Origin: Terracidiphilus sp.
GTDB taxonomy: Bacteria > Acidobacteriota > Terriglobia > Terriglobales > Acidobacteriaceae
Direction of reading: 5' to 3'
DNA length: 64,000 bases
Assembly (NCBI GenBank): GCA_052326045.1
Contig: JBKQRH010000013.1
Location: 77-64,076, forward strand
The notes under the pieces are model-generated. The model made no database searches and was not told the DNA's origin. It saw nothing but the letters and a program-made list of their open reading frames with translations. Below, piece by piece: positions 3,352 to 57,997 of the stretch (position 1 is the first letter of the stretch; every line of letters begins with the position of its first letter). A program made the position numbers and the translations under genes.

Positions 3352-3372
3352 CAGCTACAGCAATGCTGTAGA

Positions 3373-3420
3373 TGCCACAACAGGAACGCGTGCAAAGCGG
3401 GTCTTTTGATCCGCTTCGCA
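3373..3420 (+). promoter_or_regulatory. Conserved intergenic motif copy 1 (CACAACAGGA + GC-rich hairpin)
   Basis: tgccacaacaggaacgcg then tgcaaagcgggtc-tttt-gatccgcttcgca; homologous to 5892-5938 and 8287-8329; function unknown. Confidence 0.6.
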
Positions 3421-3695
3421 CCGTGAAAGAAGGTTTCGCCGCGATAATGGTTGTTTTTCGAGGATACTGTCGAGCGCGGCAATTACGGCCACTCCACGGA
3501 AAGCGGTGCAAGCCCAATCGAGATCCGTAAGTGGAGGAACCATCGTGAATTCCGCATTCACTTCGTCGCGCCGATGGGGAGAAGCAGGCAGCTTGGCGGC
3601 GACACATCACGTGCTCGAATTGCGCACAAGAATAGCCATGTGTGCAGTTCGGCTTCACTCCCCCCACCTGTAGCCAACCAAGGAGAAAATTTAAC

Positions 3696-5870: not shown

Positions 5871-5891
5871 CAAGTTAGCGCAACATATCGT

Positions 5892-5938
5892 TGCCACAAC
5901 AGGAGCGTTGCGGAGCGGGTCTCATAACCTGCTCCGCA
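5892..5938 (+). promoter_or_regulatory. Conserved intergenic motif copy 2
   Basis: tgccacaacaggagcgt then tgcggagcgggt-ctcata-acctgctccgca. Confidence 0.6.
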
Positions 5939-5991
5939 CGCAACCAAGTTTGATTCAACCCGAATTGAAATTCACACAGGGAGGATGATCG

Positions 5992-8214
5992 ATGCATCAT
6001 GCATTTGGAAAGTCGCACAAACAGGCACTCATCCGTCAGCGGATCGTGCATGGAGTATTTGTACTGACGGCTCTTGCGATGGCTCTCGTTTCTCCCAGCG
6101 CATGGGCTCAGGGCGTGGGTTACTGGCATACCAGCGGGAACAAGATCGTCGACGCGAACGGAGACACCGTGCGCATGGCGGGAATCAATTGGTACGGTTT
6201 CGAGACCCCAGACTACCTGGTTCACGGGCTATGGGCACAGGACTACCACACGGTATTGAACACCATCAAGAGCCTGGGCTACAACGTGATTCGCATCCCG
6301 TTCTCGAACCAGATGGTGGAGAGCGACCCGGTTCCCACTAACTACACTTCCTACGCCGATGGCGGTGTTGTCAACTCCCAGCTGGTTGGGCAGACGGCGC
6401 TCCAGGATCTAGACACGATTGTCGCGTATGCCGGTTCGATTGGCTTGCGCGTGATCCTCGACAACCACCGCTCCGAAGCCGGATCCAGCAACGAAGCCAG
6501 CGGCCTCTGGTATACCAGCGCGTATCCCCAGGCAAACTGGATCGCCGACTGGAAGACGTTGGCCACACGCTATAGCGCCAGCACATTCACCTTCAACGGC
6601 AATCCCACGGTGATTGGCATGGACCTGCGTAATGAGCCTCACCTGAGCGGAAGCGGCGCCACCACCGGTTCCTGCTGGACGGGGGACACTGCAACCAACG
6701 GTTGCCCAACCAGTCTCACCGCGCAAAACTGGCCTGTGGCGGCCGAAGCCGCGGGCAACGCCATCCTGGCCATCAATCCAAAACTCCTCATCTTTGTCGA
6801 AGGCAACGACTGCTACAGCGGTGTTTGCGGATGGCAAGGCGGGAATCTGATTGGCGTCGCGAATTATCCGGTCACGCTGAGCGTCGCCGACCAACTGGTC
6901 TACTCCGCGCACGACTACGGGCCGAACCTGTATCAGCAAGCCTGGTTCAACAACAGCACGACCCCCGCCAGCCTGGACGCCATCTGGAACAAGTATTGGG
7001 GATATATCAGCGCCGCCGGCACCGCCCCGGTTTGGTTGGGTGAATTCGGCACCGACAATACCAGCACCGACATCGAAAATTCAGCCGCGGGCAGCCAGGG
7101 ACAGTGGTTCGAGAGCCTAGTTAGTTTCCTGCAGAACAACCCTTCGATCAACTGGACCTACTGGGCGTTGAACGGCGAAGACAGCTATGCGCTGCTGGAC
7201 AGCAACTACGATGCGACGCCGGTCAGCTCCTTGAAGCAATCCGAACTGACCAGCATCCAGTTCCCCTTGAGTGGCGGGTCAACCACGCCGGGCTTCACGC
7301 TGGCTCCTTCGGCGAGCACTTTGTCCCTAACTCAGGGCAAGACCGCAACTGACACCATCACGGTGACGGACGTGGATGGATTCACCGGCAGCGTAACGCT
7401 TGCCGCCACCGGCCTGCCTAGCGGCGTAACGGTTGCCTACAGCACCAATCCCACCACCTCGACCAGCGTGCTGACATTCACGGCCAGCAATACAGCCACC
7501 GCCGGGCCGGCTACGGTCACCATCACCGGAACCTCTGGTAGCGTGACAGCAACCACCACCATAGCCTTTACCGTGAGCGCCTCATCCAGCTTTACGCTGG
7601 CGCCGTCGGCAGCCAACCTATCCGTGACTCAGGGAAAAACCGCAACCGACACCATCACAGTAACTGACGTAGGCGGATTCACCGGCAGCGTAACGCTGTC
7701 CGCGACCGGCCTGCCCAGCGGAGTCACTGTTGCCTACGGCACCAATCCCACTACCTCCACCAGCGTGCTGACGTTCACGGCCACCAGCACGGCCAGCACC
7801 GGCGCGGCCACGGTCACCATCACCGGAACCTCGGGCAGCACGAAGGCAACCACCACGATTACTCTCTCCGTCACCTCCTCTGGTAGCGGCAGCACATGCA
7901 CCGTCGACTACGTGATCTCGCCGCAAAACTCCAGCCAGTTCGGAGCGGCCATCACCATCAAGAACGGATCGGCCGCGATCACCAGTTGGACGCTAACCTG
8001 GAGCTTTGCAAACGGCCAGAAAGTTTCACAGCTTTGGAACGGCATTGAAACCCAGAGCGGCGCCAACGTAACGGTGAAGAACGAGCCCTATAACGGCAGC
8101 ATCGCCGCCGGCGGTACCCTCACCGGCATTGGATTCAACGGAACCTGGAACGGAACCACCAACGCGATACCCACGGCCTTCTCGATCAACGGAACGGCCT
8201 GCACCGTCAACTAG
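5992..8214 (+). CDS. Secreted GH5 subfamily 1-like endoglucanase + 2 Ig-like repeats + CBM2
   Basis: GGAGG RBS; signal (AWA-Q); [42 protein letters not shown], resembling Acidothermus E1-type Cel5. Confidence 0.95.
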
Positions 8215-8230
8215 CCGTGCAGACTCGGCT

Positions 8231-8272
8231 GGGTGCCCATCCTTGCGACTTGTTTCTGTCGCAAGGGTGGGA
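8231..8272 (+). repeat. REP-like palindrome
   Basis: GGGTG-CCCATCCTTGCGAC-ttgtttct-GTCGCAAGGGTGGG-A; GGTG foot plus stem-loop. Confidence 0.75.
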
Positions 8273-8286
8273 CGCCACGAAGCCCG

Positions 8287-8329
8287 CACAACAGGAACGC
8301 GAACGAAGCGGGTCCCTTGACCTGCTCCG
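8287..8329 (+). promoter_or_regulatory. Conserved intergenic motif copy 3
   Basis: cacaacaggaacgcg then cgaagcgggtc-cctt-gacctgctccg. Confidence 0.6.
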
Positions 8330-8582
8330 CTCATCTCCCGTTTCTCCAAAGAAAAACTTATGGCCGGCGAAGTTTCCTTTAGCCGGCCAACCGCGAGCCT
8401 GATGACACAGATGGTCCGGCCGAAGCCGTTCCCCAGACGGCTAGCGGAGAAAAGTTCAGATCTCAGGCCGGTCGATCATCTGCCCAATTCGCAAGGTACG
8501 GCCCTTATACCGGCATCATGCAACGAAAAGCACTCAAGCATTGAGTGTTGTTAGCGGGGTTATGTGATGTAAAGGAGAAACC

Positions 8583-11500
8583 ATGTTTCATGAGTTCAAT
8601 CCCCCCTGTAGGCGGGCGCGCGCGCGCCGACTGAGCGGGTACCTTGCGGTACTCGCGGCTCTACTACTAACTCTTGTTGCGCCGAGCGCGTATGCCGCAA
8701 ATGCGTGCAACGTTGTTTACACAATTTCACCGCAAAACTCCAGCCAGTTCGGAGCGACCATCACCATTGAAAATACGGGAACGACCGCCTGGACCAGTTG
8801 GTCGCTTACCTGGACCTTCGCCAACGGACAGACCATCGCCAATTCCTGGAACGGAACCGTATCGCAGAGCGGCGCCAACGTCACGGTGAGTGAACAGTCC
8901 GGCCAGACTTGGGAGAACATTCCTGCCGGCGGAAGCTACTCCGGATTCGGCTTCAACGGCACCTGGAACGGCACCACCAACGCGGTACCCACGTCGTTCG
9001 CCGTCAACGGAACGACCTGCGGCGCGACGGGGAGCTTCACGCTTAAGCCATCGGCGTTCACTCTGTCGATAGCACAGGGCGCCAGCGGCACCGGCACAAT
9101 CACTATAACAGACGTGAGTCCGTTCACCGGCTCTGTAACTCTTGCCGCGACCGGCCTGCCAACCGGTGTAACTGCCGCGTTCGCCACCAACCCGGCTACC
9201 TCGACCAGCGTGCTGACGCTGACAGCCAGCGCCACGGCCACGGCGGGAACGTCTACGGTCACCATTACCGGGACCTCTCGCACATTGACCGCAACCACCA
9301 CCATCGCGCTAACCGTCACGGCCAAGGTGGGTTTCACGCTGGCGCCCTCAGCGCCCGCTCTTTCAGTTGCGCAAGGCAAGACCGCAACCGACACCATTAC
9401 GGTAACCGACGTGGGCGGATTCACCGGCAGCGTAACTCTGGCGGCAACGGGCCTGCCCAGCGGAGTTACTGTTGCGTACGGTACCAATCCCACCACCACG
9501 ACCAGCGTGCTCACATTCACGGCTACTGCCGCAGCCACGGTGGGAACGTACACGGTGACCATCACCGGAACCTCCGGCACGCTGACCGCGACCACAACGA
9601 TCACCCTCACGGTGACTACTGCCGGCTCCGGCTACGCTGCAACCGCGAAGGCGAACTTCCTCGCCATGTACGGCGACATGACGGCTGCAAACGGCTACTC
9701 AGCCCTCTGGGCATTCCCTATCACTCAGTCGAAACGATGATCATTGAAGCTCCCGACTACGGCCATGAGACAGTATCTGAGACTTACAGTTACTACCTCT
9801 GGCTGGAATCGATGTATGGCGCCGTCACCGGCACATGGACGCCTCTGCAGACGGCGTGGGACAGTTATCAGACCTACCAGATTCCGAGCGCGGCCGAACA
9901 GCCGACCAACAGCGGTTACAATCCCAGCTCTCCGGCTACCTACGCTCCGACTTGGGATACACCCGACGACTACCCCTCCACACTCACCTCTTCGGTACCG
10001 GTCGGCATCGATCCTCTGGTAACCGAGTTGGACACCACGTATGGCACCTGGAACATCTATGGCGCGCACTGGATCATCGACTCCTCTGACTGGTACGGCT
10101 ACGGCATCAATGAGAACGGAACTGGCGCTCCGTCCTGTATCAACACGTATCAGCGTGGGCCTATGGAGTCGGTATGGTTGACGGTTCCGCAACCCTGCTG
10201 GGACAACTTCGTGTACGGCAATACCAGCAGCGGTTATCTGAGCCTGTTCACATCAGGGCCGTGGACGCAGCAGTGGAAGTATACGGATGCACCAGACGCC
10301 GACGCGCGCGCCATCCAGGCCCTGTATTGGGCACAGCAGTACTCCGGCGGAAACTCGACCGTTGCTTCGTTGCTCCCGTTGGGCGCCGAACTTGGCGACT
10401 ATCTGCGCTACTCGTTCTTTGACAAGTACTTCAAGGAACAAGGATGCCAGAGCCTCTCTTGCGCGGTGGAAAACGGCACCAAGAACTCGTCGGCTTACCT
10501 GCTGTCCTGGTACTACGCATGGGGCGGCGCACTGCCGGCGGAAGGAAGCTGGGCTTGGCGCATTGGATCAAGCGACGTCCACTTCGGCTATCAGAACCCG
10601 TTGGCGGCCTATGCGCTGTCGATCGATACCGCTCTGACTCCCAAGTCACCCACCGCAAAGGCGGATTGGACCACCACTCTCTCGCGGATGATCCAATTTT
10701 ACCGTTGGCTGCAGTCGTCGCAAGGCGCCATCGCGGGCGGCGCGACCAACAGTTGGGGTGGCGGCAGCAACAATGCAGAAACCGCTTGGGGCGGCCAGTA
10801 CGCCGTTCCTCCCGCTGGCACCAGCACCTTCTACGGAATGTCCTACATCGCGGAGCCGTCTTATGACAATCCGCCTAGCAACCAGTGGTTCGGATTTCGG
10901 GCTTGGTCTATGGAGCGTGTTGCCGAGTACTACTACGTAACCGGCAATGCGGATGCCAAGATCGTCCTGGATCCCTGGATCGCCTGGGTCGAAGCCAATA
11001 CCACGGCGACCTCGACTAGCTACTCAATTCCGTCGAGCATGACGTGGACTGGACAACCATCTCTCAATTGGAATGCGACAACTCAGGATTGGACAGTGGG
11101 TGACCTTGGGGTTACTTACAACACAGGGTTGTCCGTGACCATTACGGCCACCGGCCAGGATGTTGGAGTGACAGGTTCGCTCTGCAAGGCCCTGCTCTAC
11201 TACAGCGCAGGCACTGCGAAATGGGCGACGGCGCAAGACATGCAGTCCTTCAATCTTGCCAAGCAGCTGCTGACCACTGTATGGGCGCTGGACCGCGACA
11301 GCATCGGCCTGTCGGCTTCTGAAACGGGCACCACCTACAATCAGATCACCACACCCATTTACATTCCCGCGGGTTGGACGGGAACCATGCCCAACGGCGA
11401 TCCGATCAACTCCGACTCGACGTTCCTCAGCATCCGGACCAAATACGAGACGGATCCGGAATACCCCGTGGTCGCGAAGTATGCCGCTGGCATCGGGCCG

Positions 11501-11590
11501 GCTCCAGTATTCAAATTTCACCGCTTCTGGGCTCAGACGGACATTGCCACGGCCTATGCGGTGTACTACCTGTTGTTCCCGAACGACTAA
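8583..11590 (+). pseudogene. CBM2 + 2 Ig-like repeats + GH48 cellobiohydrolase, split by a 1-nt frameshift near 9699 into ORFs 8583-9740 and 9737-11590 (real lesion or sequencing error)
   Basis: AAC GGC TAC TC AGC CCT CTG GGC ATT CCC TAT CAC: adding one T restores the GH48 motif [26 protein letters not shown]; catalytic motifs TVSETYSY, NTYQRGP, YTDAPDADARA, HRFWAQ intact. Confidence 0.85.
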
Positions 11591-14578: not shown

Positions 14579-17533
14579 TTAGTTGGCGGTTTCAGTAAAA
14601 GTGACTGAAGCGCCGCCCAGGGCGAACTGGTCCTGGGCCTTGACGGTCACCGTGCCTGCGGTGGACGGCAGGGTGAGGGTCACGGAGGCTATGCCCGACG
14701 AACTGGTTGTGGCAATCACGCTCGTACCCGACGTGGTTCCATTCGACAGAGTGCCGGCCGAGGTGGTGAACAGGATGCCGGCTCCCGTAGCGCTTCCGCC
14801 GGATTGGCCCGGCGCGAGGGTGACGGTGAGGGTATTCGAGAGGGCCGTGCCTGCCGTGCCGGTCTGGTCGTTGCCGCCGGTGACGGTGAGGGTGGCCGGC
14901 GTATTGCCCACAACGATCCAGCCGCCCTGTGTCTGAGTAGCCGTGCCGTCGGAGCCGGTCACGGTGAAGTGGCAGAAGCCGGGCGTGCTGACCGCGTTCA
15001 CGGTGATGGTTGCGGTCTGGGTCGCGGTAATGGTGGAGTTGGTGAGCGCCAGAGAGCCGCTGCAGGCGGGGGCGCCCTGGTAAGCGTCGAAGACAGCCGA
15101 TGAGAGTGTCACTGTGGCGCTGCCGCTGCTGATCGCCGGATGCAGGGTCGCGGCGCCCGAGGCAGGAATCATCAGGTCGTCGGGGTTGAGGTGCCACTCC
15201 GATGCGGGTGTGGAGGCTTCGCTTCCGTTGACCACCAGCAGAGTGATGCTGTAGGGAGCGAAGGTCTGCGTCGCACTCCAGGCTGCGGAACTGGAAGCCG
15301 AAATTGCGCTGGAAGCGGTCGAGGCCAGCGTGTAAGCCACGTAGCTGGACGCGCTGAATCCGGACAGATTGAATGTTACCTGCGCCGTGTTCTGGGAATC
15401 CTTGTTAAGGACCATGATGGTCATCGTCGTGCCGGTTGAGTTGAGCGAGGCGTAGCTGCTGAACAGATCAGAATTGCCGTTGTTGGCAGCAGAGATCGAC
15501 AGCGGCTCGAACATATGATGTGCGCCGTCGTAGTTGGTGTACATCTTCCAGGCCAGGTATTCAGCAGTGCCTGGCGAGGGCCCGCCCCAGCGCGAGGCAA
15601 AGCTAAGTCCCTCGCGTCCAAAGACGCCTAAGGTGTCCGCGTCGGCTATCGCCGTGGAAAAGTCCGATCCGCTGTTCTGGGCCAGGCCAGCGCCCCACTC
15701 GGTATAGGACAGGGGCGTTCCGGGGTAGATGGCGTTGACCATGGCCTTGAAGCGCGGAATGTGGAAGGGGATGCCAGGATTTGGCTCCTCATTGGTCGTC
15801 CAGGTGTTGTCCGTATCCAGGTTCACAGTGGCCGGATCCCAGTAATACCCAGCGCACTTAACCGTAGCAGCCTGAAGCTGTGCGTTGGTGAAATTGGTGG
15901 TAGGGCCGCAGTCTGCATACGCATGAATATCGAAGACGTCAAGCGTGCGCGCGCCGTTGATCAGATCGAACCAGTAGATCTGATTCAGCCACCAGGGCAG
16001 GAAGTCAACGCCGCCGTGAGCGGCCTTGTCATTGCCGTTGGCGCCGTTCCAGTAGAACCACCAGCAGCAGAAGACCGGACCAAAGCGTACTGCTGCCGCA
16101 TCCCACGTCTTGAGATTCGTCGCTTCTGCCTCATAGAGACTGGCGATCTCGTCGTAGCCCGTCGGGGCCGGGTGAACGTCGCGGTGTGTGCCATTCCAGA
16201 TGTCGGGTTCGTTGTCCATGTCGTAGAAGTGGCAGGAGGTGATCGTCGAATACGGCACGGAGCACGTTCCGCTTCCGAAGGCGGTGGCCAGCGCCTTCGC
16301 CCAGGTTTCGCGGTCGATGCAGGTTGTCTCCGAGGTAGTTCCTGCCGGGCAGTTTTGTGCGCTGTCAACCAGCGGATAGTAGGCCGTGGTGACGGCGTTG
16401 GTGGTCACCGGTGTCTTGCAGTCGGTTTCAAGTCCGTCGCCGGCGTCGCTGTTGTAGGGATCGACGGAGCACTGCGATCCGAACTTCGCGACGGAAAAGC
16501 TCCAGTTGCGATTTGTGCTGTTCTCGGCTTCCCCGGCCACCCAGTCCATCATGGCCATCGTCGTCAGAGCATGGCTGCCGGCATTTTGGGTATTGGTAAT
16601 AAGTTGGACCTGGTCGCCCGCGCCTCCGTAGTCTTCGAAGTAATAGTCTGCGGCGGAATTGCGGGTTTGCAACTGCCAATTGTAGTTCGACGCGTCATTG
16701 CCGCCCCATCGCGAAAAGGTGTAGCCCACGTCGGATATGTCCGAAATCGTCTGGTCATTATTCCCGTAAACGAACGGGCTGATCTGATGGCGATTGGCCA
16801 GAACGTCGATGTTGACCGTAACGGCCGTGACGCTGCCTGCGGTGACGGTGACCGAGGCGGTTCCCGAGGCGCTGTTGTAGGTTGCGGAGCTGCCGCTGTC
16901 CGGGGTGTACGTGGCGGTCAGCGTATAGCTGCCTGTTGCCAGCGAACCGGCCTGAATCGTGATCGTTGCCGAGCCGGAACTGAGCGTAGTGGCGGATGAA
17001 GTGTAGCTGCCGCCGGATAGAACCACCGAGCCAGTTGGCGTGCCACCCGATCCGGAGACCGCAATGGTGACTGAGAGCGATTGCGCCGTGGTAATACTGC
17101 TGGATGCCGGTGTCACGGTAACAGTGGGCGTAATCGCAGGCTGCGTGACGGTGATTGAGGCGGTTCCGGAAGCGCTGTAGTACGCCGCCGAGCTGCCGCT
17201 GTCCGGAGTGTACTTCGCGGTCAACGTATCGGAGCCTCCGGCGAGCGATCCTGCCGGAATGGTAATGGTTGCCGAGCCGGAGCTGAGCGTCGCGGCGGAG
17301 GAGGTATAGCTGCCGCTGGAAAGGACCACCGATCCGGTAGGCGTGCCATTGGCGCCGGAAACGGCGACCGTCACGCTGAGGCTCTGGGCAGAGCGAATGC
17401 TGCTGGATGCGGGGGTGACCGTGACCGTAGGCGTAACCGGACCCGATGATGAATTATTGCCGCCGCCGCCACAGCCGTTAGGCAGGAAAACAACGCAGAT
17501 ACATCCCATCAAAAACAGTAAAAGAGACTTCAT
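14579..17533 (-). CDS. Probable lipoprotein: 2 Ig-like (Big_3-type) domains + GH44 endoglucanase/xyloglucanase + C-terminal Ig-like domains
   Basis: Hydrophobic N-terminus ending GC-GGGG; RWGGN..SNYNW, MDNEPDIW..THRDVHP, DVFDIHAY, SYTEWG, GVFGREG, YTNYDG. Confidence 0.88.
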   Translation of the reverse strand: MKSLLLFLMGCICVVFLPNGCGGGGNNSSSGPVTPTVTVTPASSSIRSAQSLSVTVAVSGANGTPTGSVVLSSGSYTSSAATLSSGSATITIPAGSLAGGSDTLTAKYTPDSGSSAAYYSASGTASITVTQPAITPTVTVTPASSSITTAQSLSVTIAVSGSGGTPTGSVVLSGGSYTSSATTLSSGSATITIQAGSLATGSYTLTATYTPDSGSSATYNSASGTASVTVTAGSVTAVTVNIDVLANRHQISPFVYGNNDQTISDISDVGYTFSRWGGNDASNYNWQLQTRNSAADYYFEDYGGAGDQVQLITNTQNAGSHALTTMAMMDWVAGEAENSTNRNWSFSVAKFGSQCSVDPYNSDAGDGLETDCKTPVTTNAVTTAYYPLVDSAQNCPAGTTSETTCIDRETWAKALATAFGSGTCSVPYSTITSCHFYDMDNEPDIWNGTHRDVHPAPTGYDEIASLYEAEATNLKTWDAAAVRFGPVFCCWWFYWNGANGNDKAAHGGVDFLPWWLNQIYWFDLINGARTLDVFDIHAYADCGPTTNFTNAQLQAATVKCAGYYWDPATVNLDTDNTWTTNEEPNPGIPFHIPRFKAMVNAIYPGTPLSYTEWGAGLAQNSGSDFSTAIADADTLGVFGREGLSFASRWGGPSPGTAEYLAWKMYTNYDGAHHMFEPLSISAANNGNSDLFSSYASLNSTGTTMTIMVLNKDSQNTAQVTFNLSGFSASSYVAYTLASTASSAISASSSAAWSATQTFAPYSITLLVVNGSEASTPASEWHLNPDDLMIPASGAATLHPAISSGSATVTLSSAVFDAYQGAPACSGSLALTNSTITATQTATITVNAVSTPGFCHFTVTGSDGTATQTQGGWIVVGNTPATLTVTGGNDQTGTAGTALSNTLTVTLAPGQSGGSATGAGILFTTSAGTLSNGTTSGTSVIATTSSSGIASVTLTLPSTAGTVTVKAQDQFALGGASVTFTETAN

Positions 17534-17719: not shown

Positions 17720-20700
17720 TCACTGCACTGTGAGCGCGATCTGGAAGGTCGGTTGCGTGCAGGGAGCCAGCGTTGGGCTTCCAGTTGGAGGGTTACTCCC
17801 CGGAATAATACCGCAGGGCTGTGTTTGTCCCGTGTTCACAGAGCCGTTCGTGTTCAATGCATACGGGTCAGAGGAGGCAACCACGGTAATCGTGCTCGAG
17901 CCGGGCGGGGTGGAGAATTGAATCCCGTTGTTGCAGGCCATGAGTCCACTTGCCGAAACCGCAAGCAGAACCATCCCGATCAGCATGGTGACCGTACTCC
18001 AGGCTCCGCGCACCAACCGGCGCCGCGTCCAGAACAGGAACAACCCGGTGAGACCGCCCAGCCACCACAGCATTGAACTCTGCAACGGAGAGTTGGGTGG
18101 ATTGTTCACCACAACCTGCAGGTTTGTTGTGGCAGGAGGATATGAAACGGTGGCTGTGTTGGCCATGACCGTAACCTGCCCAGGCGAAAACACGCAGATT
18201 GAGTTGGCCGGCAGCGAAGAAGCCAGGCATTGATAGCCTACGACGCCCTGCCAGCCGCCGTAACTGGTGTTGGTAAAGGTGATGGAGCTATTGTTGTTGT
18301 TGCTGCCGCTGCTGGTAAGGCTTGTACCGCTTGGAGTGATAACGACAGAACCGATTGCGGGGCCAACATTGAACGATGCGCTTGCCGATTTCGATCCGGT
18401 GAAGTCTATATCGCCGCTATAGGTAGCGACAACGGAGACCACATCATAACTGCTCGAAATTGGAGTGCTTGGCGTATAGGAGGTTGAGACCACGCCATTG
18501 TCCGCTGCTATAAGGGTGAGCGGTATTGTGACGGGGGTGCCACCGGATGCGTCAGTAAAGACAAGCGTGACGGTTCCTGTCAGACTGCCCGCGAAGGTCG
18601 AACTCACGGTTGCGGTGAAAGTGAGCGCCGTACCCGCCGGCTGGCTGGCTGGATTGTTATAGAGCGTCGTAAACGAAAGCGTAGTCGAAGTAGCGACCGT
18701 CTGCACCGTGGGGTTGAGCGCATTGGAAGAACTCTGCGAGTAAGCAATAAAAGCCGTTTTTGCTCCCAGGTAAGTCGCCGACAACGTATGACTGCCTCCA
18801 GAGAGACTCCCGCCAGCGATCGTATAGCTCGCCACGCCATTGCCGTATAACGCGACAGTTTGCTCGACGATGCCATCCACGAGGAATTGCACATTGCCAG
18901 AAGGCGTGCCGTTGGAAGAGTCCACTGAAGCTACTGAAGCTTGAAGCGTCACAGGCTGGTCATAGGAGATGGCGCCCGTTGGCGAGGTGATCGCCAATGT
19001 TGTCGTCGTCGCTGCCGTAATAAAGCCCGTACCGGTGAATGTAACCTGTTGACCGCTCGCGTTGGCGGCTGTGCTGCTCAGCGCGTAGGTCTCGGAATAC
19101 GATGCAAGCGCGGCAGGCGTAAAGGTTGCTTCCAGGTTGCAACTTGATCCGGAGGCCACCGACGCGCCGCTGGCGCAGGCATTTGTCTCCGAGGAAAGAG
19201 CGGTGAAGTCAGCCGTATCTCCGGTAAGCGCATAGAAGGGGCTAGCGAGTGTCAACGCCTGGTTTCCGGAGTTCTCCAGGTAGTAGGCCAGAGATGAACT
19301 TGTTGAACCAGGATTCCAGAAACCGAACGACTGTGTGCCCTCAATGCGATTGACCGTGTAAGCAGCGGCGTTTACGTTGTCGCTTACATAGATATTGCCG
19401 ATAGGGTCGATTGCGACGCCGTAGGGAGCCTTGACAATCGCTGTTCCGGTCAAATCGAGTTGGCCGACGACATTGATGGCCTGGGTGGGAGCCAAAGAAC
19501 CAGAGATGTTGGGCACGCGCCAGATCTTTGCATTGCCCTGATCGACGATGAAGAGCGCGCCCGATGCGTCTACAGCCAAGCCCGATGGCGTGCTGTAACC
19601 CGAGGCCACTGTCACCTGCACGCCCTCGCTCAGCGGAGCGGTCACTTCGTAGACGTCGCCATTGCCCGCGTCGGCAACATAAACGTTCCCGGAAGCATCC
19701 ACGGTGATCGCCGAGGGACTGCTCATGCCGGAGCCGAGGGTCTGCGCAAAAGAGACATTCCAACTGCCAACATAGGGCACGTAGACAACTCGCTTGTTGC
19801 CTGAATCGGCAATATAGAGATTGCCCAGGCTATCGACGGCGATTCCGGCAGGTTTCTTCAATGCGGAGCCGGCCAGGGTGGCGCTGGAGGAGATGACGGT
19901 GACCTGGGCGGAGGTGCTTAGCGCTCCATTGACCACCGGGATCTCAACGATCTGATTGTTGCCGGTATCGGCGACAAACAAGTTGCCTGCGCCATCAACA
20001 GCAACGCCGGTAGGACCGCTAAGGCCGCTGCCCAGCGCAACCGCCGCAGTCTTGCCGGCCGGGATTTCCAGCACTGCGTTTTGACTGGAGTCGGCAAAGA
20101 AGAGATTGCCTAGGTTGTCGATCGCCTCGCCAGTTGGCGCCGTGTAGCCGGTGCCGAAGGTAGAGACCACGCCAAGATCGACGGTAAGTCCGGCACCTGC
20201 ACCGGTACCGGAGATGTCGGCCGTCGCCAGTACGTTGTCGCTGGCATCCGTGAGCACGACTGCTCCGTAGGCCACGCCGGGTGTGGCGGGCGCAAAGTTC
20301 AGATTCACGGTGCAGCTATTGCCTGGCGTGTAAGAAGTCGCTGAACAGCTTCCTGTTCCCGCGTTGGAGAAGATTCCCGCGCCGGTAACCAAGGAGTAGG
20401 CGGCCGGCGTCTCGTCCGCGTTGAAGACCACGTTCAGGGTGCCTGTTCCGTTGGCGCCCACGGCCGCCGATCCCAAATTCGCGCTGCCCTGCGTGACCTT
20501 ATAGACCGACGAACCGCCGTTGGAGTAGTAGAGATTTCCAAACGCGTCGATGGCCACGGCGCTGGACAGAGTGAGGGGATAGGTGGTGCCCGAGCCTGCG
20601 GTAATGATGTACTGATCCGCCGGGTTCAACACCCCGCCTTCATTGGGAATCACATAGAGGATCGAGGACAAGTACAGCGGCGGCCACCAGCCGTTGATGG

Positions 20701-21565
20701 CATATTGCGCGCTCGTCCCCTGGTCGGCAACATAGAGGTTCCCCGCCGCGTCAAGGCTGACTCCCACCACGCTGGTGTATCCGCTTCCGAAGGCTACGGG
20801 AGTAGCGCTGTATACGCCTAGAGTTGAGCTTGTGCCCACAGTGGTCACCGGCAACTCATAGAGCCCGCCGCCGGAGGCGTAATAGATGTTATTGTTCGCA
20901 TCGACGGTCATCGAAACGATGGGCGACGATAGCGAGGCAATCAACGTTGCGCCACTGCCCGAGTATGCATTCTCTTCGAGCAATTCGTTTGCAGACGTGC
21001 AGCAAGCGTTGTTCGTCGCAATGAAGATATTGCCGGAAGAGTCGGCAGCAACGGCGGAGGGTGTATACCACCAGCTGATCGCTCCCAGGTTTCCGATGCT
21101 GATCGTATACGCGCCACTGGCATTCAGAGCGCAATTGACAATCGGGATGCGGAGTTGATTGTATTCCCCATCGGCGATATAGATGTTGCTCTTCGACGCA
21201 TCGATCCATATCTCACGGGTCGCCCAATTATCATTTTGTGCGGCGAATACGATTGTGGGCGCTCCTCCGCCAGCGGGGATTTCGGTGATCTGGCCGCCAT
21301 TTTCTGTGTTTCCGGATGAGATACCCGAGGCAAGCGCATAGATGTTACCACAGGCATCGAGAACGACGCCCGCTTCTTGAGCAGCTTGACCATCAGCATA
21401 GGTTAATCCTGTCGCCGCTGTGGATTCGCTGGAAACCACCACTTGATGCGCATTGGCGGCAGCGTGCCCCGTTCCAGTCAAGACGATCCCAATCAAGCCC
21501 AGAATGAGCATCGTCAGCCACGCGTTCCGCCGGGTCCAACCGTTCATCCAATCATTGCTCGACAT
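17720..21565 (-). CDS. Large secreted NHL-repeat beta-propeller / Ig-like repeat protein with C-terminal TM hairpin and internal lipobox
   Basis: Signal peptide; many P.GVAVD..GNLYVAD repeats; Big_3-like domains (A.YSGD..F..S.S); near the C-terminus TM-RRR-TM-GLMAC. Confidence 0.88.
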   Translation of the reverse strand: MSSNDWMNGWTRRNAWLTMLILGLIGIVLTGTGHAAANAHQVVVSSESTAATGLTYADGQAAQEAGVVLDACGNIYALASGISSGNTENGGQITEIPAGGGAPTIVFAAQNDNWATREIWIDASKSNIYIADGEYNQLRIPIVNCALNASGAYTISIGNLGAISWWYTPSAVAADSSGNIFIATNNACCTSANELLEENAYSGSGATLIASLSSPIVSMTVDANNNIYYASGGGLYELPVTTVGTSSTLGVYSATPVAFGSGYTSVVGVSLDAAGNLYVADQGTSAQYAINGWWPPLYLSSILYVIPNEGGVLNPADQYIITAGSGTTYPLTLSSAVAIDAFGNLYYSNGGSSVYKVTQGSANLGSAAVGANGTGTLNVVFNADETPAAYSLVTGAGIFSNAGTGSCSATSYTPGNSCTVNLNFAPATPGVAYGAVVLTDASDNVLATADISGTGAGAGLTVDLGVVSTFGTGYTAPTGEAIDNLGNLFFADSSQNAVLEIPAGKTAAVALGSGLSGPTGVAVDGAGNLFVADTGNNQIVEIPVVNGALSTSAQVTVISSSATLAGSALKKPAGIAVDSLGNLYIADSGNKRVVYVPYVGSWNVSFAQTLGSGMSSPSAITVDASGNVYVADAGNGDVYEVTAPLSEGVQVTVASGYSTPSGLAVDASGALFIVDQGNAKIWRVPNISGSLAPTQAINVVGQLDLTGTAIVKAPYGVAIDPIGNIYVSDNVNAAAYTVNRIEGTQSFGFWNPGSTSSSLAYYLENSGNQALTLASPFYALTGDTADFTALSSETNACASGASVASGSSCNLEATFTPAALASYSETYALSSTAANASGQQVTFTGTGFITAATTTTLAITSPTGAISYDQPVTLQASVASVDSSNGTPSGNVQFLVDGIVEQTVALYGNGVASYTIAGGSLSGGSHTLSATYLGAKTAFIAYSQSSSNALNPTVQTVATSTTLSFTTLYNNPASQPAGTALTFTATVSSTFAGSLTGTVTLVFTDASGGTPVTIPLTLIAADNGVVSTSYTPSTPISSSYDVVSVVATYSGDIDFTGSKSASASFNVGPAIGSVVITPSGTSLTSSGSNNNNSSITFTNTSYGGWQGVVGYQCLASSLPANSICVFSPGQVTVMANTATVSYPPATTNLQVVVNNPPNSPLQSSMLWWLGGLTGLFLFWTRRRLVRGAWSTVTMLIGMVLLAVSASGLMACNNGIQFSTPPGSSTITVVASSDPYALNTNGSVNTGQTQPCGIIPGSNPPTGSPTLAPCTQPTFQIALTVQ

Positions 21566-21707: not shown

Positions 21708-24700
21708 TTAGAAGTTGTACTTCAAGGCAAACTCAACATAGCGCAAGCCGAACTTATACGGCGTGTATCCGAAACCTGGATTGTTCATATACAGGCTGGA
21801 AAATGCAGCCTGTTGCGAGTAAAGGCACCCTGCGCCGGTTGTTGTGTTGCATGCGGGGTCCGCAAAGGTCAGGTTCAACGCCTGGGTATTGCCGATGAAA
21901 GACGAGAGGGGGTGGTTAAGGAAGTTGAAGGCCGACATGCGGAACTGAAGGTTTTCCCGGTCGTTTAACGGAATGTCCTTATAGAGCGAGAGATCGGAGT
22001 CGAAGTAGGCAGGTCCACGCACGTCGGGAAGATTCCACCACCCCTGCGTTCCCAGTGCCGGAAGGGCGAAGCAGTTTCCATTGACATACTGTTTCGACAC
22101 TTGGTTTCCGGTCAGAAGTTTCGAATGAAGGTTGGCCCGCGGATCGCAGGTTACCGTCGGTTGCAGGTTGTAGTCCGAACTGCCCAGCCATTGAGACGCG
22201 CCAATGGGAATGCCGATCGTGGTCAGCGAAGGGGCTGTGCCCGTGACGTAACCTGCGGATGCGGAGAAGCCGAAGTTCGTCCCGCTGGTGATGGCGAAGT
22301 CCGGGCCGCTCGTCAGTCTCGTGATGCCCGAAAGCTCCCAGGTGTTCAACAGCCAGCCCAACTCGCGGTTGCCCTTGAACTTCTTGCCCTCCTGGTAGGA
22401 GAAGGAAAAGTTGAAGACTTGCGGGCGGTCGTAGGAGACAATGCCGTAATCGTGTTGTGGATTCAGCGGATCCCCAGTGCCGCCCGTATCCCAGTTGCCG
22501 CGAACCGCCATGGCCTTGGACCACGTGTAGTTGATTCCCAGGACGAGAGAACCGCTCTGCTTGTTCAGGGAGACTTGCATGGCGTTGTAATTTGCCCAGT
22601 TGGTGTGCTCGGGAACGTTTACCTGCTGATAATTGGGATACGGACGATAGTCGTTCGCGATGCTGCTGGTGATGTTCGAAGTAGGGTTGGTTTGCCCGGT
22701 AAGAGGGTCGGGACCGAAGAAAGCGCCCAGGGGTATCACGTTATGGTTCTGCAGACTGGCCATCGTGGCAAGATTCGTGCTCTGGTTTCCGACATAGGCA
22801 ATTTCAAACACGGCGCCGTAAGGCAATTGCTGATCAAGCGTGAAATTGTAGTTGTAGGTAACCGGCTGCTCGTTGTCCTTCGGATCATCCGCGGTGATGC
22901 TTCCGACCGCTCCCGTTGTCGTGAATTTCTGAGGGCTGGTCACAAACGCCGGACTCCCGGTATAGAATCCGCAGGTGAGAACCTGCGAGCCTGTAGGCGT
23001 GGTGCCGATGGGGGCCGAGTTGAACAGTTGGTCCAGCGTGCAACTGTTCTGGAAGCTGGTGGCTATGGTGTAATGGATCAGATTTTGGGCCGTCCCCACC
23101 GCTCCGCCGGTCACATTGGCCGAGTCGCGCGACCGGTAGACACCGAAGCCGCCACGGAAAACGCTTTTTCCATTTCCATAGAGGTCGTAAGCGAGGCCAA
23201 CACGCGGCTGGTAGAAGAGAGCGCGGGTTCCCACACCGGCAACGGGAATGCTGGAGTCCAACTGATGCCACTTGATGCCTGGCCACGTCCTGGCGTCCTG
23301 AGTCATATTCGCATCCCACACGCCGGGCTGAATCGGATTGTACTCGGTGGGATCCCAGACCGCAGCGCCGATGCCGTGGGTATCGGACCACGGGGGAAGA
23401 TGAGAGAGCCGGATGCCGAAGGTGAGCGTCAGCTTTGAATTCACCTTCCACTCATCTGTTGCGTAAAACTCAAGGGTGTCGAAGTGCATAGTGCCGGCGG
23501 GATCGGAGGAGTCCTGCGTGTAACCGCCGGTGCAGCCGGCCAGAAAGTTGGCGGTGGTGTTTCCAAGGCCCGTAGTTGGCGGCGTAACCAGCGTACCTGT
23601 CGAAGTTGTGGAAGGCGTGGTTTGATTGGGGATGCACCCTTCGTAGCGATCGAAGAGAATATTGCCGTTCGCCTGGCTTCCGAGCACTACATTGCCGTTC
23701 CTCATCTGCTCCGCGTAAACGCCGGCCTTGATGGCGTGCGTGCGGTAGATTTTGGTGAAATTGTCGCCTACACTCCATGACGCTTTCCGCAAATATTCGC
23801 TGCTTGCAGGCACATACCCGAAGGAAAAGTTGGGGACGCCGATATTCTCCCAGGAGTAAATCCGCGGCAACTGGTTAATACCGTTCTTCAGGGCTCCGCC
23901 CTCGTATCCGGCTGCCGCCCACGGCGTTCCGGTATCCAATGCCAATGAACGATTCGCGAATTGCTGCGGTTCATTGAAATACAGTCCCGCGGCAACAATC
24001 TCGTTGGTCATGGTGCTGCTTATGATCTTTGTAAGGTTGAGAGATGCGTAGTCCGAGTACGTATACGAATCGAGCGGCGTGGGGTAGGGGATGGTATCGG
24101 GGGGATTATAGTAAATGTTGTTCAGCGGTTGTTCGGTGTTCACCTTCTCCCAGTTATAAGTCCCATATAACTTGAGGCTGTCCGAGAAGTTCTCATCCAC
24201 GCGGCCGTGAAACTGGTAGCCGTTATAGGTCGCCATGACGTTCTCGGCCCAGTTGTAGCCATCCGACGCGTAGCCGTTTGCGGGTTGGGGAACGCGGTTG
24301 ATTGCCGGATAGTATTTGGTGAAGGCGGCCGTTGCAGGATTGATGCTGTTCAGTTGCCCTGAAGCGGGAATCTTGTTCCCATTCTGATCGATCCCACCCG
24401 CGGGCGAGAAGCAATCGCCCCCGATGTTTGAATAGGCGGGCGTCTGGCTCCAGTCCTGGGGGCAACCCGCGGCCAGGTCGGTGGCGGACACATTGAAGGC
24501 GCTGGCGAGCGAGGCTTCGGAAAAGTCCCCGCTCAACATGGCCGGGGTCGGAATGAATCCGTACATCGGCCCCCCGAATGTTCCGTTTGCATTATTCTTT
24601 TGGCCGTAATACTCATACCCCACCCAGAAGGTGAGGCGTTTGCTGTCATTGAAGTGGGTGCCGGGGATTTTGACCGGCCCGCCCAGTGTGCCTCCGGGAT

Positions 24701-25688
24701 AGAAATACCTCATTGGAGCCTTGGCGACTACGGGGGTTTGGTTGTTCGACAGCCAGTCGTTGGAGTTGAAGATGTGATTCCGGACGTAGCCGTAAAGAGA
24801 ACCGTGATACTCAGCCCCGCCCGACTTGCCCACCGCGGAAATGACGATCGGCCCCTTGGCCTCATCGGCGCCGAAGTCCGAGGTTTGCACCTTGACTTCC
24901 TGCACCTGGTCCATGTTGATGTTGGCGGTTGTCGCTCCCATATCGCCGGGATCGATCACCTGGGCTCCATCGGCGGAGATGTTGACAAGCCCTGACTGCG
25001 GGGCCGCGCCGTTGGCTCCGTAACTGCCAAGATTCGCCGATCCAAAACTGGTGGTGTTGTAGTCGGCGCCCGTGTTGTTCAGGCCTGTGCCCGCGTTGAG
25101 GGTAAAGCCGGGCAGCATGCTCACCAATTCCAGGGCATCGCGGCCGGTGGTGGAAAGACGGGCGATATCGGCGGAGGTGATCAGTGTGCTGTGTTCGCCG
25201 GAGTTGAGGGTTACGCCCGCTTTCTCAGCCGTAACCACCACCGATACCACAACCTGGCCGATCTTCAGCTTAATTTTTGGCACGGTCAGGCTGTCGCCAG
25301 GATGGACCTCAATGCCCGTCACCTTCCAGGACTCGAAGCCGGTCATGGTCACCTGGATGCTGTAGGTGGCGCCCGGTTGCACGGCAAGAAAGTTGAAGAA
25401 ACCCTCGCCATTGCTGGTGGTGTTACGGGTCGCCTTGCTGGCTTCGTTGATGAGCGTGACCTTGGCGCCGGGAATCACCGCGTTAGAGGCATCGCGAACA
25501 GTGCCGGAGACGGATGAGGTTGTCTGCGCGTGGGCCGCGGCTACCAGGAAGAGCAGGGCCGCAACCCCGAGTACCCAGTACGGAAACGTTTTCAGCGATC
25601 GCATCGACGATGCACAAAAAGACAGGTTCGTAGATATTGACAAGATGTGCCTCCAAATCTGTGGTGCCCGGTTGCCCGGTTCCTCCAA
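21708..25688 (-). CDS. TonB-dependent receptor (acidobacterial Oar-like, N-terminal carboxypeptidase-regulatory-like domain); true start probably further in (TTG ~25643 or ATG ~25604)
   Basis: AHA-Q signal; SGTVRD.SNAVIPGA.VTL; VQEVKVQTS.FGA; PRVGLAYD; C-terminal FALKYNF beta-signal. Confidence 0.93.
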   Translation of the reverse strand: MEEPGNRAPQIWRHILSISTNLSFCASSMRSLKTFPYWVLGVAALLFLVAAAHAQTTSSVSGTVRDASNAVIPGAKVTLINEASKATRNTTSNGEGFFNFLAVQPGATYSIQVTMTGFESWKVTGIEVHPGDSLTVPKIKLKIGQVVVSVVVTAEKAGVTLNSGEHSTLITSADIARLSTTGRDALELVSMLPGFTLNAGTGLNNTGADYNTTSFGSANLGSYGANGAAPQSGLVNISADGAQVIDPGDMGATTANINMDQVQEVKVQTSDFGADEAKGPIVISAVGKSGGAEYHGSLYGYVRNHIFNSNDWLSNNQTPVVAKAPMRYFYPGGTLGGPVKIPGTHFNDSKRLTFWVGYEYYGQKNNANGTFGGPMYGFIPTPAMLSGDFSEASLASAFNVSATDLAAGCPQDWSQTPAYSNIGGDCFSPAGGIDQNGNKIPASGQLNSINPATAAFTKYYPAINRVPQPANGYASDGYNWAENVMATYNGYQFHGRVDENFSDSLKLYGTYNWEKVNTEQPLNNIYYNPPDTIPYPTPLDSYTYSDYASLNLTKIISSTMTNEIVAAGLYFNEPQQFANRSLALDTGTPWAAAGYEGGALKNGINQLPRIYSWENIGVPNFSFGYVPASSEYLRKASWSVGDNFTKIYRTHAIKAGVYAEQMRNGNVVLGSQANGNILFDRYEGCIPNQTTPSTTSTGTLVTPPTTGLGNTTANFLAGCTGGYTQDSSDPAGTMHFDTLEFYATDEWKVNSKLTLTFGIRLSHLPPWSDTHGIGAAVWDPTEYNPIQPGVWDANMTQDARTWPGIKWHQLDSSIPVAGVGTRALFYQPRVGLAYDLYGNGKSVFRGGFGVYRSRDSANVTGGAVGTAQNLIHYTIATSFQNSCTLDQLFNSAPIGTTPTGSQVLTCGFYTGSPAFVTSPQKFTTTGAVGSITADDPKDNEQPVTYNYNFTLDQQLPYGAVFEIAYVGNQSTNLATMASLQNHNVIPLGAFFGPDPLTGQTNPTSNITSSIANDYRPYPNYQQVNVPEHTNWANYNAMQVSLNKQSGSLVLGINYTWSKAMAVRGNWDTGGTGDPLNPQHDYGIVSYDRPQVFNFSFSYQEGKKFKGNRELGWLLNTWELSGITRLTSGPDFAITSGTNFGFSASAGYVTGTAPSLTTIGIPIGASQWLGSSDYNLQPTVTCDPRANLHSKLLTGNQVSKQYVNGNCFALPALGTQGWWNLPDVRGPAYFDSDLSLYKDIPLNDRENLQFRMSAFNFLNHPLSSFIGNTQALNLTFADPACNTTTGAGCLYSQQAAFSSLYMNNPGFGYTPYKFGLRYVEFALKYNF

Positions 25689-26070: not shown

Positions 26071-26108
26071 GTACAGGCACGTACACCGAACCGTTACACG
26101 GTGTGTAT
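26071..26108. promoter_or_regulatory. Candidate operator in the divergent promoter region (GTACA/GTTACA repeats; GAACCGTTAC)
   Basis: GTACA at 26071 and 26081, GTTACA at 26093; GAACCGTTAC at 26088 recurs at 27808. Confidence 0.35.
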
Positions 26109-26214
26109 ATTTATGAAACTTAATGGGATAGACCAAATTCACGGGATGGCTCCGCGGCGCTGTTGCAATTGCGTACTTGGGACAGCTATGATCACACCAC
26201 ACAGGAGATGGTCG

Positions 26215-27738
26215 GTGTCTAACACCACCCAGGCCGTATCGAATCGCCCTCCATCCGCCTCGATGGAGGACGAGCGCCGGGAACTGGAGGTTGTATCCGC
26301 GGCGTTAGCGAATTCTACCCGGCTGTTTCGGCTAATCACCTATATCGGGGAAAAGCATTTCCAGGGTGAAACGGACAAGCTGCACGAGTACGGCATCGCA
26401 ACCGAAGTCTTCGGACGCTCAAAGGACACATTCAATGCAGGCGAGGACGCGATTGTGCGGGTAGAAGCCCACCGCCTGCGAAAACGACTGAAGGAGTATT
26501 ACGCGGGCGATGGGAAAGATCACCCAATCCATCTGTCGATTCCACCGGGAACCTACGTCCCTGTTTTCACGCGCCAGTCTTCTGGCGCAGCAAAGCTCGA
26601 GAGCGAAACAGTCCTCGCACAGCCGGACACACGGCCTTGGTATTATTCTTGGCATTATGTAGTCGCGATCGCGGCATTCGCCTTGACGATTCTCGGCGGA
26701 TACCTGTTCTTCCGGGCTTACGGCGCAAAGAAAGACAACGTTGGCACCGCGGCTTCCAATGCACAGCAAGCCGCTCCCTCGAACGCCGCACCCTACGCAC
26801 AGGTACCCCTGCGAATTCTCGCTGGCTACGACGGAAAGCCGCGGATCGACAGCGCCGGAAACGTCTGGCAGCCCGACCAGTATGTTTCTTTTGGCGGGAG
26901 GTGGGAACGTCTGGACAGCGTCGTAGCGCGAACGAGCAATCCGATGTTGTTCGAGCATTGGCGCAACGGAGGCTTCTACTACGACATTCCACTGCGGCCT
27001 GGCGTATACGAACTACACCTCTACTTCTTCTCCGTAGAGCCGGACTCCAGAGGCCCGTCCTCATTTTCCGTCTCGCTAAACGGGCAACCGCTCCTGCCCG
27101 GCTTCGATGTCAACATAGATGCCCAGGGGCCGAACATCGCCGACGAGCGCGTCTTCCGCGACATCAGCCCAGGAAGTGACGGATTCCTGCGCCTTGGCTT
27201 TACCGCCGAGCGCGCCTTGGCGACGCTGAGTGCGATTGAGATTCTGCCCGGGACACCCAACCTGCAGCTTCCCATCCGCCTGGTTACGCAGCCGATTTCC
27301 TATACTGACCACAGCGGCCAGTTCTGGCGTCCTGACGACTACTACATGGACGGATACACTGAGACGAAGCGAACGAAAATCGCGGGGACACCCGATCCCG
27401 ACCTTTTCGCAGCGGAGCGGTATGGGCACTTCACATACGCCATTCCGGTTGACACGCGTGATCGCTACACCCTGATCCTTCACTTTGCCGAGTTTTACTT
27501 CGGGCCCAGCGCGTCGGGAATCGGAGGCGTGGGAAGCCGCGTGTTTCGCGTCCTGTGCAACGGAAACACTCTACTCGATGACTTCGACATCTACAAGGAA
27601 GCGGGCGGTCTTCATGCCCTGACAAAAACCTTTTACCACCTGAGACCCACAGGGCAAGGCAAGCTCAACATTACCTTTGAGCCGATTGTGAACAACGCCA
27701 CGGTCTCGGGTATCGAAGTCCTCGACGAATCGCAATAA
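26215..27738 (+). CDS. Membrane-spanning putative regulator: N-terminal wHTH-like domain, one TM helix, two malectin domains
   Basis: AGGAG then GTG 26215; EYGIATEVFGR...DAIVRVEAHRLRKRLKEYY...IPPGTYVPVF; TM VVAIAAFALTILGGYLFF; malectin motifs DSAGNVWQPD, YELHLYF, DHSGQFWRPD, LILHFAEFYF..RVF, VSGIEV. Confidence 0.85.
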   Translation: MSNTTQAVSNRPPSASMEDERRELEVVSAALANSTRLFRLITYIGEKHFQGETDKLHEYGIATEVFGRSKDTFNAGEDAIVRVEAHRLRKRLKEYYAGDGKDHPIHLSIPPGTYVPVFTRQSSGAAKLESETVLAQPDTRPWYYSWHYVVAIAAFALTILGGYLFFRAYGAKKDNVGTAASNAQQAAPSNAAPYAQVPLRILAGYDGKPRIDSAGNVWQPDQYVSFGGRWERLDSVVARTSNPMLFEHWRNGGFYYDIPLRPGVYELHLYFFSVEPDSRGPSSFSVSLNGQPLLPGFDVNIDAQGPNIADERVFRDISPGSDGFLRLGFTAERALATLSAIEILPGTPNLQLPIRLVTQPISYTDHSGQFWRPDDYYMDGYTETKRTKIAGTPDPDLFAAERYGHFTYAIPVDTRDRYTLILHFAEFYFGPSASGIGGVGSRVFRVLCNGNTLLDDFDIYKEAGGLHALTKTFYHLRPTGQGKLNITFEPIVNNATVSGIEVLDESQ

Positions 27739-57283: not shown

Positions 57284-57997
57284 ATGGAAGACAGCGGGGC
57301 TTCAGGTTCCGGCAGGGAGAACTCCGTCGCCGCACGGAGCAAGCGGCGCGACTTGCTTGAGCTTGCTGTTGCCTATTCGCTGATTCTGCTCGTCGTCTGG
57401 ACGCCGCGCCCCTGGCAGCGACTGCTCTGGTGGGTTGCAGCCGCCTCGGTCGTGGCCATTACGTGCATCTCGTTCGACGGCTTGAAAGCGATGGGCCTGT
57501 GCAGGGCAAACTTCTTCCGTTCGCTCTGGGTGGCAGGTGCAGCCCTCGCGGTGGCCGCGGTGGCCGTCGCCGTGGCCGACAAGCTGCATACGCTGCACGC
57601 GCCGCGCGGCCCCGTCCTGTTCATCGAGACTTACTGGGCTTATGCGCTGTGGACGATTGTGCAGCAGTTCCTGTTGCAATGTTTCTTTCTGTTGCGGCTC
57701 AGGCGGCTGGCGCCGGGCGCAAACTCCGCGGCGGCCGTGGCCGCGGCCATCTTCGCGATCGCGCATCTGCCCAATCCCATCCTCGCCTCGGTCACCTTGA
57801 TCTGGGGCTTTGCCGCCTGCCTGCTCTTTCTCCGCTATCGCAACCTTTATCCGCTGGCCATGGCGCACGCCATCCTGGGCATCACCATCGCCATCACCAT
57901 TCCCGGACCGGTGGACCATAACATGCGGGTTGGCCTCGGCTACCTGACTTACAGGCACAGAATTCATCCAACGGCATATCCGTCACCGCAGCCATAG
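57284..57997 (+). CDS. CPBP/Abi intramembrane protease-like protein with degenerate motif 1
   Basis: QQFLLQ in place of EExxxR; FAIAH and HAILG motifs kept. Confidence 0.8.
   Translation: MEDSGASGSGRENSVAARSKRRDLLELAVAYSLILLVVWTPRPWQRLLWWVAAASVVAITCISFDGLKAMGLCRANFFRSLWVAGAALAVAAVAVAVADKLHTLHAPRGPVLFIETYWAYALWTIVQQFLLQCFFLLRLRRLAPGANSAAAVAAAIFAIAHLPNPILASVTLIWGFAACLLFLRYRNLYPLAMAHAILGITIAITIPGPVDHNMRVGLGYLTYRHRIHPTAYPSPQP

Follow-up and report, generated by a model that had tools for sequence, protein, structure and literature searches.

The window, by which we mean the whole 64,000-nucleotide stretch of Terracidiphilus sp. DNA analyzed here, carries a passenger gene that lies among GH5, GH6, GH30, GH42, GH44, and GH48 genes (identified by Pfam) and encodes a protein with an N-terminal signal peptide, NHL/beta-propeller repeats, ASH/choice-of-anchor-D-like and Big_3_5 Ig domains, and a split terminal Ig domain. 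Pfam matches in the passenger are to the NHL, propeller repeat, and Big_3_5 families, and no Pfam family was found for its last 220 residues, tail included. The features of the gene and its immediate neighbors are as follows (AF2, AlphaFold2).

17720..21565, minus strand: passenger gene, 1281 aa
21461..21565, minus strand: predicted Sec signal peptide, with a basic start, a hydrophobic core, and a GHA end
18107..18349, minus strand: N-terminal half of the last Ig-like domain (strands A-E, aa 1073-1153), strands as predicted by AF2
18080..18106, minus strand: short Pro-rich linker ahead of helix 1, a candidate release-cut site judging from sequence
18029..18079, minus strand: membrane helix 1, Gly-rich, predicted to run outside to inside (AF2 helix 102-123 of fragment P0001)
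18002..18028, minus strand: basic, putatively cytoplasmic loop (RRR), with Arg at 78-82% in three alignment columns
17936..18001, minus strand: membrane helix 2, predicted to run inside to outside (AF2 helix 128-151), resembling the h-region of a lipoprotein signal peptide
17933..17944, minus strand: internal lipobox LMA/C with Cys1211, an invariant alignment column
17723..17935, minus strand: tail of 71 aa, comprising a tether, strand F, a loop with a Cys pair, and strand G
About 17873-17902 and 17726-17749, minus strand: strands F and G, respectively, from AF2 and the alignment
Between strands F and G: tail loop, subfamily-specific, with its Cys pair at aa 1251 and 1269
21708..25688, minus strand: TonB-dependent-receptor-like outer-membrane barrel gene (PF25183, PF13620), directly upstream of the passenger
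14579..17533, minus strand: GH44 glycoside hydrolase with an ordinary N-terminal lipoprotein-like signal, the downstream neighbor

A sequence-only reading of this DNA had claimed an insert of two helices and a Cys inside the last Ig domain, and both translation and coordinates place it there, between strands E and F. The MLWW of helix 1 starts at 18073, the Cys codon occupies 17933-17935 and the stop codon 17720-17722 (minus strand), and the Cys is residue 1211 of 1281, with 70 residues after it. The N-terminal half of the domain holds a Cys pair of its own (aa 1113 and 1124), conserved at 98% and 97% in the alignment.

The receptor gene lies directly upstream in all six of the closest orthologous loci (46-90% identity), the nearest of which belong to Terracidiphilus MAGs (89-90% identity), and the GH44 neighbor is kept in only two of the six. 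The receptor pairing put forward in the sequence-only reading therefore stands for these close orthologues but not for the tail at large, given that only one of the eight tail genes in the genome has any of the 12 receptor-like ORFs on its contig; it is a trait of the subfamily. Judging from its neighbors, the passenger probably binds glycans as the receptor's partner, in a locus for cellulose/hemicellulose use. A gene for a malectin-domain membrane-spanning protein (26101-27738, plus strand) runs divergently from that of the receptor, is kept beside it in five orthologous loci (L071-L074 and L076), and is likely to encode a sugar sensor for the locus. Elsewhere in the window, positions 13-11590 (plus strand) hold a GH6, GH30, GH5, and GH48 cluster with near-identical Ig repeats and CBM2 modules, a pattern that suggests recent module shuffling. 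Within it an ORF with CBM2 and Ig repeats (8583-9740, plus strand) overlaps the GH48 ORF (9737-11590, plus strand), whose Pfam match starts at model position 33, and the two look like one exoglucanase gene split by a frameshift. GH48 together with GH6 is unusual for an acidobacterium.

A universal barrel downstream of tail genes was considered and rejected, as only 2 of 40 fetched loci (one of the 40 being just 450 bases long) and one paralogue of this genome have a small barrel gene after the tail gene. Where it occurs (G000:C103:10524-11192 on the plus strand, also L144 and L148 [PF13505]), this small outer-membrane beta-barrel gene comes directly after tail genes whose subtype is marked by a GG-aromatic motif immediately behind the Cys, and it is a possible partner of the tail protein.

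To trace the split domain by homology, we used an HMM of the family's N-terminal half only, built without the helices or the Cys. It matches 24 domains in the genome, 17 of which, including the cellulase repeats of the window, are intact and run straight into the last two strands; the other seven contain the helix-basic-helix-Cys insert, each with its Cys. Since all seven are the last repeat of their protein, the presence of the insert in the terminal domain is not chance, and in a paralogue on contig C101 intact and split repeats stand in tandem. A profile search gave 1,372 long proteins; in the best 120 of these, 91 proteins had matches to this HMM, amounting to 563 domains. A hydrophobic stretch follows 40 of these domains, and 34 were retained as split after six had been dropped by eye (five complete domains with an ordinary single C-terminal helix and one false call). 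All 34 split domains in this best-120 set, for which the Cys played no part in selection, have the Cys and are the last detected repeat. The likeness to the cellulase repeats of the window that the sequence-only reading had drawn by eye is real by way of the family, whose N-terminal-half profile finds those repeats at E 4.5e-5 to 1.8e-12, but weak on direct comparison: a three-repeat cellulase profile gives just a weak match to the N-terminal half (conditional E 0.006) and fails to recognize the tail as strands F-G, so the match holds only through the family.

AF2 modeling of the terminal fragment from a 94-row alignment returned a pLDDT of 87.1 and a pTM of 0.74, with strands within residues 12-92, helices at 102-123 and 128-151, and strands at 161-176 and 212-219. 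The single Ig fold across the insert anticipated from the letters is thus what the model predicts, with a pairing of the flanks that rests on an alignment built from these same proteins. In VIA-align, fragment residues 3-220 superpose on single Ig-like domains, best on Vpr (Z 10.2, rmsd 2.2, 106 residues aligned) and also on the VAP-A MSP (Z 9.2, rmsd 3.3, 119/126 aligned); for this predicted structure, such Z values denote a common fold and no specific relative. Foldseek against the PDB gave no match at E 0.001 or better, and the Atlas returned unnamed clusters only. When the two halves were modeled as separate chains they scored 0.53, against 0.00 for the best of three controls, with a partner pLDDT of at least 63 and runs agreeing in at least 90% of contacts; this mark is reached by 116 of 157 solved pairs and 2 of 215 mismatches, of which only 18 solved pairs and both mismatches lie at a score of 0.60 or under, and the two parts of a single domain are apt to score well because they resemble solved Ig folds. 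The two-chain prediction lends weak support to an association of the halves. That both flanks form one Ig-like beta sandwich is well supported by homology together with the predicted model.

The Cys itself was followed in 77 relatives from a phmmer search, six of which lack an intact helix 2 and appear frameshifted, chimeric, or partial. It is present in 69 of the 71 with an intact helix 2, the two exceptions looking broken, and it forms the sole invariant column of alignment A1 (94 curated rows, broken-looking rows having been left out before the count). Coupled with the split domains chosen without it, these figures make the Cys near-invariant, a property on which the sequence-only reading had staked its proposal. 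A further set of 111 non-redundant tails was picked for [GAS]C and so is no test of the Cys; in it, position -3 is L, M, I, or V in 87 tails (L or V in 60), -2 is S, T, A, V, or I in 90 (mostly Ser or Thr), and +2 is G in 74, A in 15, S in 9, T in 6, N in 6, Y in 1, and Asp in none. On average these tails have 4.8 Lys/Arg in the loop, as against 1.6 in the linker that precedes helix 1 and 0.2 beyond the Cys, a distribution consistent with an out-in-out hairpin that exposes the Cys to the periplasm. A signal-peptide-like character of the second helix is supported by the small residue at -1, the aliphatic residue at -3, and the Gly/Ser tether that follows. The earlier view of helix 2 and LMA/C as an internal lipoprotein signal agrees with these features but departs at one position from the textbook lipobox, [LV][ASTVI][GAS]C (PMC8689077), to which the window's LMAC conforms at -3, -1, and +1 and not at -2, where it has Met; as residue 1211 of 1281, the Cys also falls outside the definition of an N-terminal lipoprotein signal. 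Helix 1 is less hydrophobic than helix 2 (median 1.59 versus 1.88) and contains Pro in 72 of 114 cases, compared with 10 of 114 for helix 2, some of which may be helix caps. Across the 111 tails we found no fixed motif ahead of helix 1. A regex scan for the tail gave one false match, to an MFS-like transporter, and missed one paralogue.

Four relatives (P0115, P0120, L088:496-2667 on the minus strand, and L089:3-2639 on the plus strand) carry an insertion of one or two Ig-like domains that separates the Cys from the final strand pair, and in all four that pair still ends the protein. As read from these sequences, the last two tail strands are under selection, and the nested domains are placed as a stalk rising from a lipid anchor would need. 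In the model of L089, which shares its alignment with typical members and is not independent of them, residues 1-68 and 241-264 form one domain at pLDDT 92-98, with a best structural match at Z 11.7, rmsd 2.1, and 99 residues aligned; the nested part, at pLDDT 39-55, is uninformative on stalk geometry. An N-terminal half with its own Cys pair occurs in 12 of 14 split domains versus 38 of 88 intact repeats of the same proteins. At the other extreme of size, two proteins, each about 200 residues long, have nothing but a signal peptide and the split domain (L093:1431-2075, minus strand, and L094:1287-1946, plus strand); as passenger-free anchors, these minimal members are puzzling in function.

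The genome also has a free-standing ORF with only the loop, helix 2, the lipobox, and the last two strands (G000:C87:18827-19018, plus strand; L085), with an ATG and an upstream AAGGAG, that could be expressed as a tiny lipoprotein. We rejected it as a natural two-gene form, as it duplicates the 3' end of the C60 paralogue (84% identity over 203 bases) and its absence from the locus in 60 genomes of the genus makes it probably a recent remnant. No halves on separate genes were found elsewhere, the 10 short-ORF or partial matches being broken, at a contig end, or full-length.

The sequence-only reading had called this C-terminal system undescribed, and here it was overtaken by the catalogs: NCBIfam NF058595 invert_tail ("lipo-invert putative C-terminal anchoring domain", release 20.0) already models the motif and matches passenger residues 1145-1233, at the C terminus, with E 3.7e-7 over positions 8-101 of the 113-position model. 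The description stops at the model, for which we found no paper. Our literature search, with subscription journals mostly outside it, found none on the tail, and a term search of the available part of a preprint on Cys-bearing sorting signals (10.1101/2023.06.07.544157) returned no "invert", "Acidobact", or "hairpin"; the tail type is catalogued and apparently untested in print. The window copy scores 26.8-30.5 bits by hmmscan and 32.6 bits in the genome search, below the cut-off of 37, which seven full-length paralogues and one fragment in the same genome exceed, and 88 of the 94 aligned relatives match the model. We know NF058595 from its name and description line and read its architecture from its members. 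The window copy shares with those over the cut-off the helix, basic loop, helix, Cys, and terminal strands, and differs from them in its short Pro-rich linker, its lack of a poly-Gly tether, and its longer, Cys-paired loop between the last strands; it is a divergent, receptor-paired subtype below the catalog cut-off. The NF058595 model starts at strand E and so does not cover the N-terminal half of the split domain. The NF058595 cut-off can be passed by intact Ig repeats without a hairpin, as at locus L053 (genome G045), and the model misses true divergent tails such as that of the passenger.

NF058595 matches 52 of 121 genomes of the class. It reaches every genome sampled in four families (17/17, 16/16, 16/16, and 1/1), 1/16 in another, and 0/54 across eight more, and the tail is near-universal in the first four. 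Among 151 genomes of the phylum, a sample that includes one flagged as unpublished (G024, which enters only the phylum-range and lgt-related tallies), 16 match at E 1e-5, the four outside the class being partial matches only, and the sole over-cut-off match outside the class is an intact repeat. None of 14 control genomes passes the NF058595 cut-off. The phyletic range that the sequence-only reading left to be mapped is thus concentrated in four families of the class. As a feature, the tail is both real and widespread.

Core enzymes of the Lgt/Lsp route, assumed in that reading, are encoded in the genome, with two Lgt matches, one LspA, one Lnt over its cut-off, and two LolA-like proteins over theirs. 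The second Lgt-like gene (G000:C185:50178-51053, plus strand) lacks the Arg of the usual Lgt signature motif, and its product may be non-catalytic or altered. No enzyme dedicated to the tail was found in the genome. A dedicated Lgt was rejected because copy number does not track the tail (at least two lgt matches in 10 of 12 tail-bearing genomes and in 58 of 139 others, with two tail-bearing genomes having one) and because the lgt near one paralogue resembles the housekeeping copy. One CPBP/Rce1-like match stands between lgt and the tail gene on C60, about 1 kb from the paralogue, yet the 3.9-Mb assembly has 19 such matches, which makes proximity weak evidence for a dedicated protease; two others adjoin at about 57600-58300 (minus strand) of the window. 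The genome has five rhomboids, and no TIGR03902 rhombosortase match over cut-off was found in this 86% complete assembly (best 42.3 bits versus 84). Three T2SS secretin matches are all below the TIGR02517 cut-off.

In chaperone-usher and type V pili, a second chain donates the strand that an incomplete Ig-like fold lacks; here the donor would be the protein's own tail, would give two strands, and is predicted to anchor rather than polymerize. With the classical lipoproteins, as presented in PMC8689077, the tail has in common a basic patch, a hydrophobic helix, a lipobox Cys, and a flexible tether. It differs in that the signal is internal, near the C terminus, and preceded by another helix, and that the bulk of the protein precedes the Cys and could follow the lipid only non-covalently; the source describes N-terminal signals, and an internal lipobox is not the textbook LspA substrate. 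The MYXO-CTERM/myxosortase system (PMC11980579) likewise ends surface proteins in an anchor whose invariant Cys is predicted to receive a lipid, but there the Cys lies before a single helix, with no defined lipobox and inverted topology, and a CPBP protease cuts to leave the Cys on the passenger, whereas here it would end on a separate peptide. The passenger tail has its Cys after helix 2 with 70 residues beyond, in place of a Cys motif ahead of one helix and a terminal basic cluster, and no MYXO-CTERM match was found in NCBIfam. With GlyGly-CTERM/rhombosortase it shares helix 1 and a basic cluster of the same predicted topology, but the chain continues through a second helix and tail, in place of the GG/one-helix/basic-end architecture, and most tails have no GG motif before helix 1.

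We propose a model in which the passenger would enter the periplasm by Sec export, as its signal peptide indicates, whereupon helix 1 would stop transfer, leaving the basic loop inside, and helix 2 would re-enter to bring the Cys to the periplasm, as the charge pattern suggests. The tail would fold back and supply the last two strands of the Ig sandwich, a step for which there is homology and a predicted fold. Lgt, LspA, and Lnt would process the internal lipobox, and a general membrane protease, most plausibly a rhomboid, would cut at or before helix 1, with Lol carrying the complex out. A 71-residue lipopeptide, made by lipidation and cleavage at the hairpin Cys, would then hold a 1,150-residue passenger and, with helix 1 removed, take it to the outer membrane beside the receptor. 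We give this entire chain of events an even chance. Lipidation and cleavage of the tail are likely, and Lgt, LspA, and Lnt are quite probably the enzymes that would process the internal lipobox; removal of helix 1 followed by Lol transport is the weakest step and might equally well occur or not, which puts release to the outer membrane on a level balance.

The main alternatives turn on the fate of helix 1 and of the Cys. If helix 1 is kept, the passenger would be unable to leave the inner membrane, and Lgt/LspA cleavage with fold completion would leave it doubly tethered there, facing the periplasm. This outcome, which we think unlikely but take seriously, draws on the lack of a conserved cut motif before helix 1 and of a dedicated protease or over-cut-off rhombosortase in the genome, and on the finding that most paralogues have no outer-membrane partner gene; a periplasmic binding protein beneath the receptor is also plausible. 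The number of lgt copies, being uninformative, and the lack of a natural two-gene form likewise give removal no help, and the full model is further weakened by a receptor on the contig of just one in eight tail genes, by the scarcity of small barrels, and by the Met at -2 of the window copy. Removal of helix 1 is favored, on the other hand, because a retained helix would make a lipid anchor superfluous, whereas the Cys is near-invariant; because +2 is never Asp and spacer domains may be nested after the Cys; and because helix 1 is weaker than helix 2 and richer in helix breakers such as Pro. The +2 rule for sorting comes from E. coli and may not hold in Acidobacteriota. The five rhomboids also favor removal, with a precedent in the housekeeping rhomboid GlpG, which is reported to cut the loop before a C-terminal anchor helix (PMC11389362).

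Two further readings depart from the proposed model in what they make of the Cys or of the bond between the halves. One would leave the hairpin uncleaved as an anchor, the Cys being acylated without cleavage or merely structural and the whole protein staying in the inner membrane; AF2 folds the intact chain well, and neither an internal lipobox (by PMC8689077) nor Met at -2 is what LspA would be expected to see, but the small -1, aliphatic -3, and Gly/Ser tether recur across diverse tails as in a cleavable signal and not as around an arbitrary Cys, and we consider this reading improbable. The other makes the tail a shedding device, in which the passenger, after both cuts, is held until the strands exchange or unfold and is then released in soluble form. 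The link would indeed be non-covalent, and the usual Cys pair of the N-terminal half could stabilize it without the tail; yet the last two strands are kept in every tail examined, nested ones included, and, to go by donor-strand systems, an Ig domain would not be expected to be stable without two of its core strands, which leaves this reading very improbable.

The proposed model, in its broadest form, would add a third route to a surface-anchored protein in diderms: an internal C-terminal lipoprotein, two cuts, and a non-covalent ride to the outer membrane on the lipopeptide that completes the last Ig fold, serving anywhere from several to over a dozen proteins per genome in four Acidobacteriota families with no dedicated sortase, and here delivering a SusD-like partner to a TonB-dependent receptor. 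We hold this claim tentatively, at slightly short of even. The natural versions of about 200 residues offer cheap test substrates. If the model is true, Lgt and LspA act on an internal signal, something absent from textbook descriptions, and strand complementation serves as a membrane tether. It would explain the location of many large exported proteins in a group that is dominant among soil bacteria, and would hint at how TonB-dependent receptors are equipped there without a SusD.
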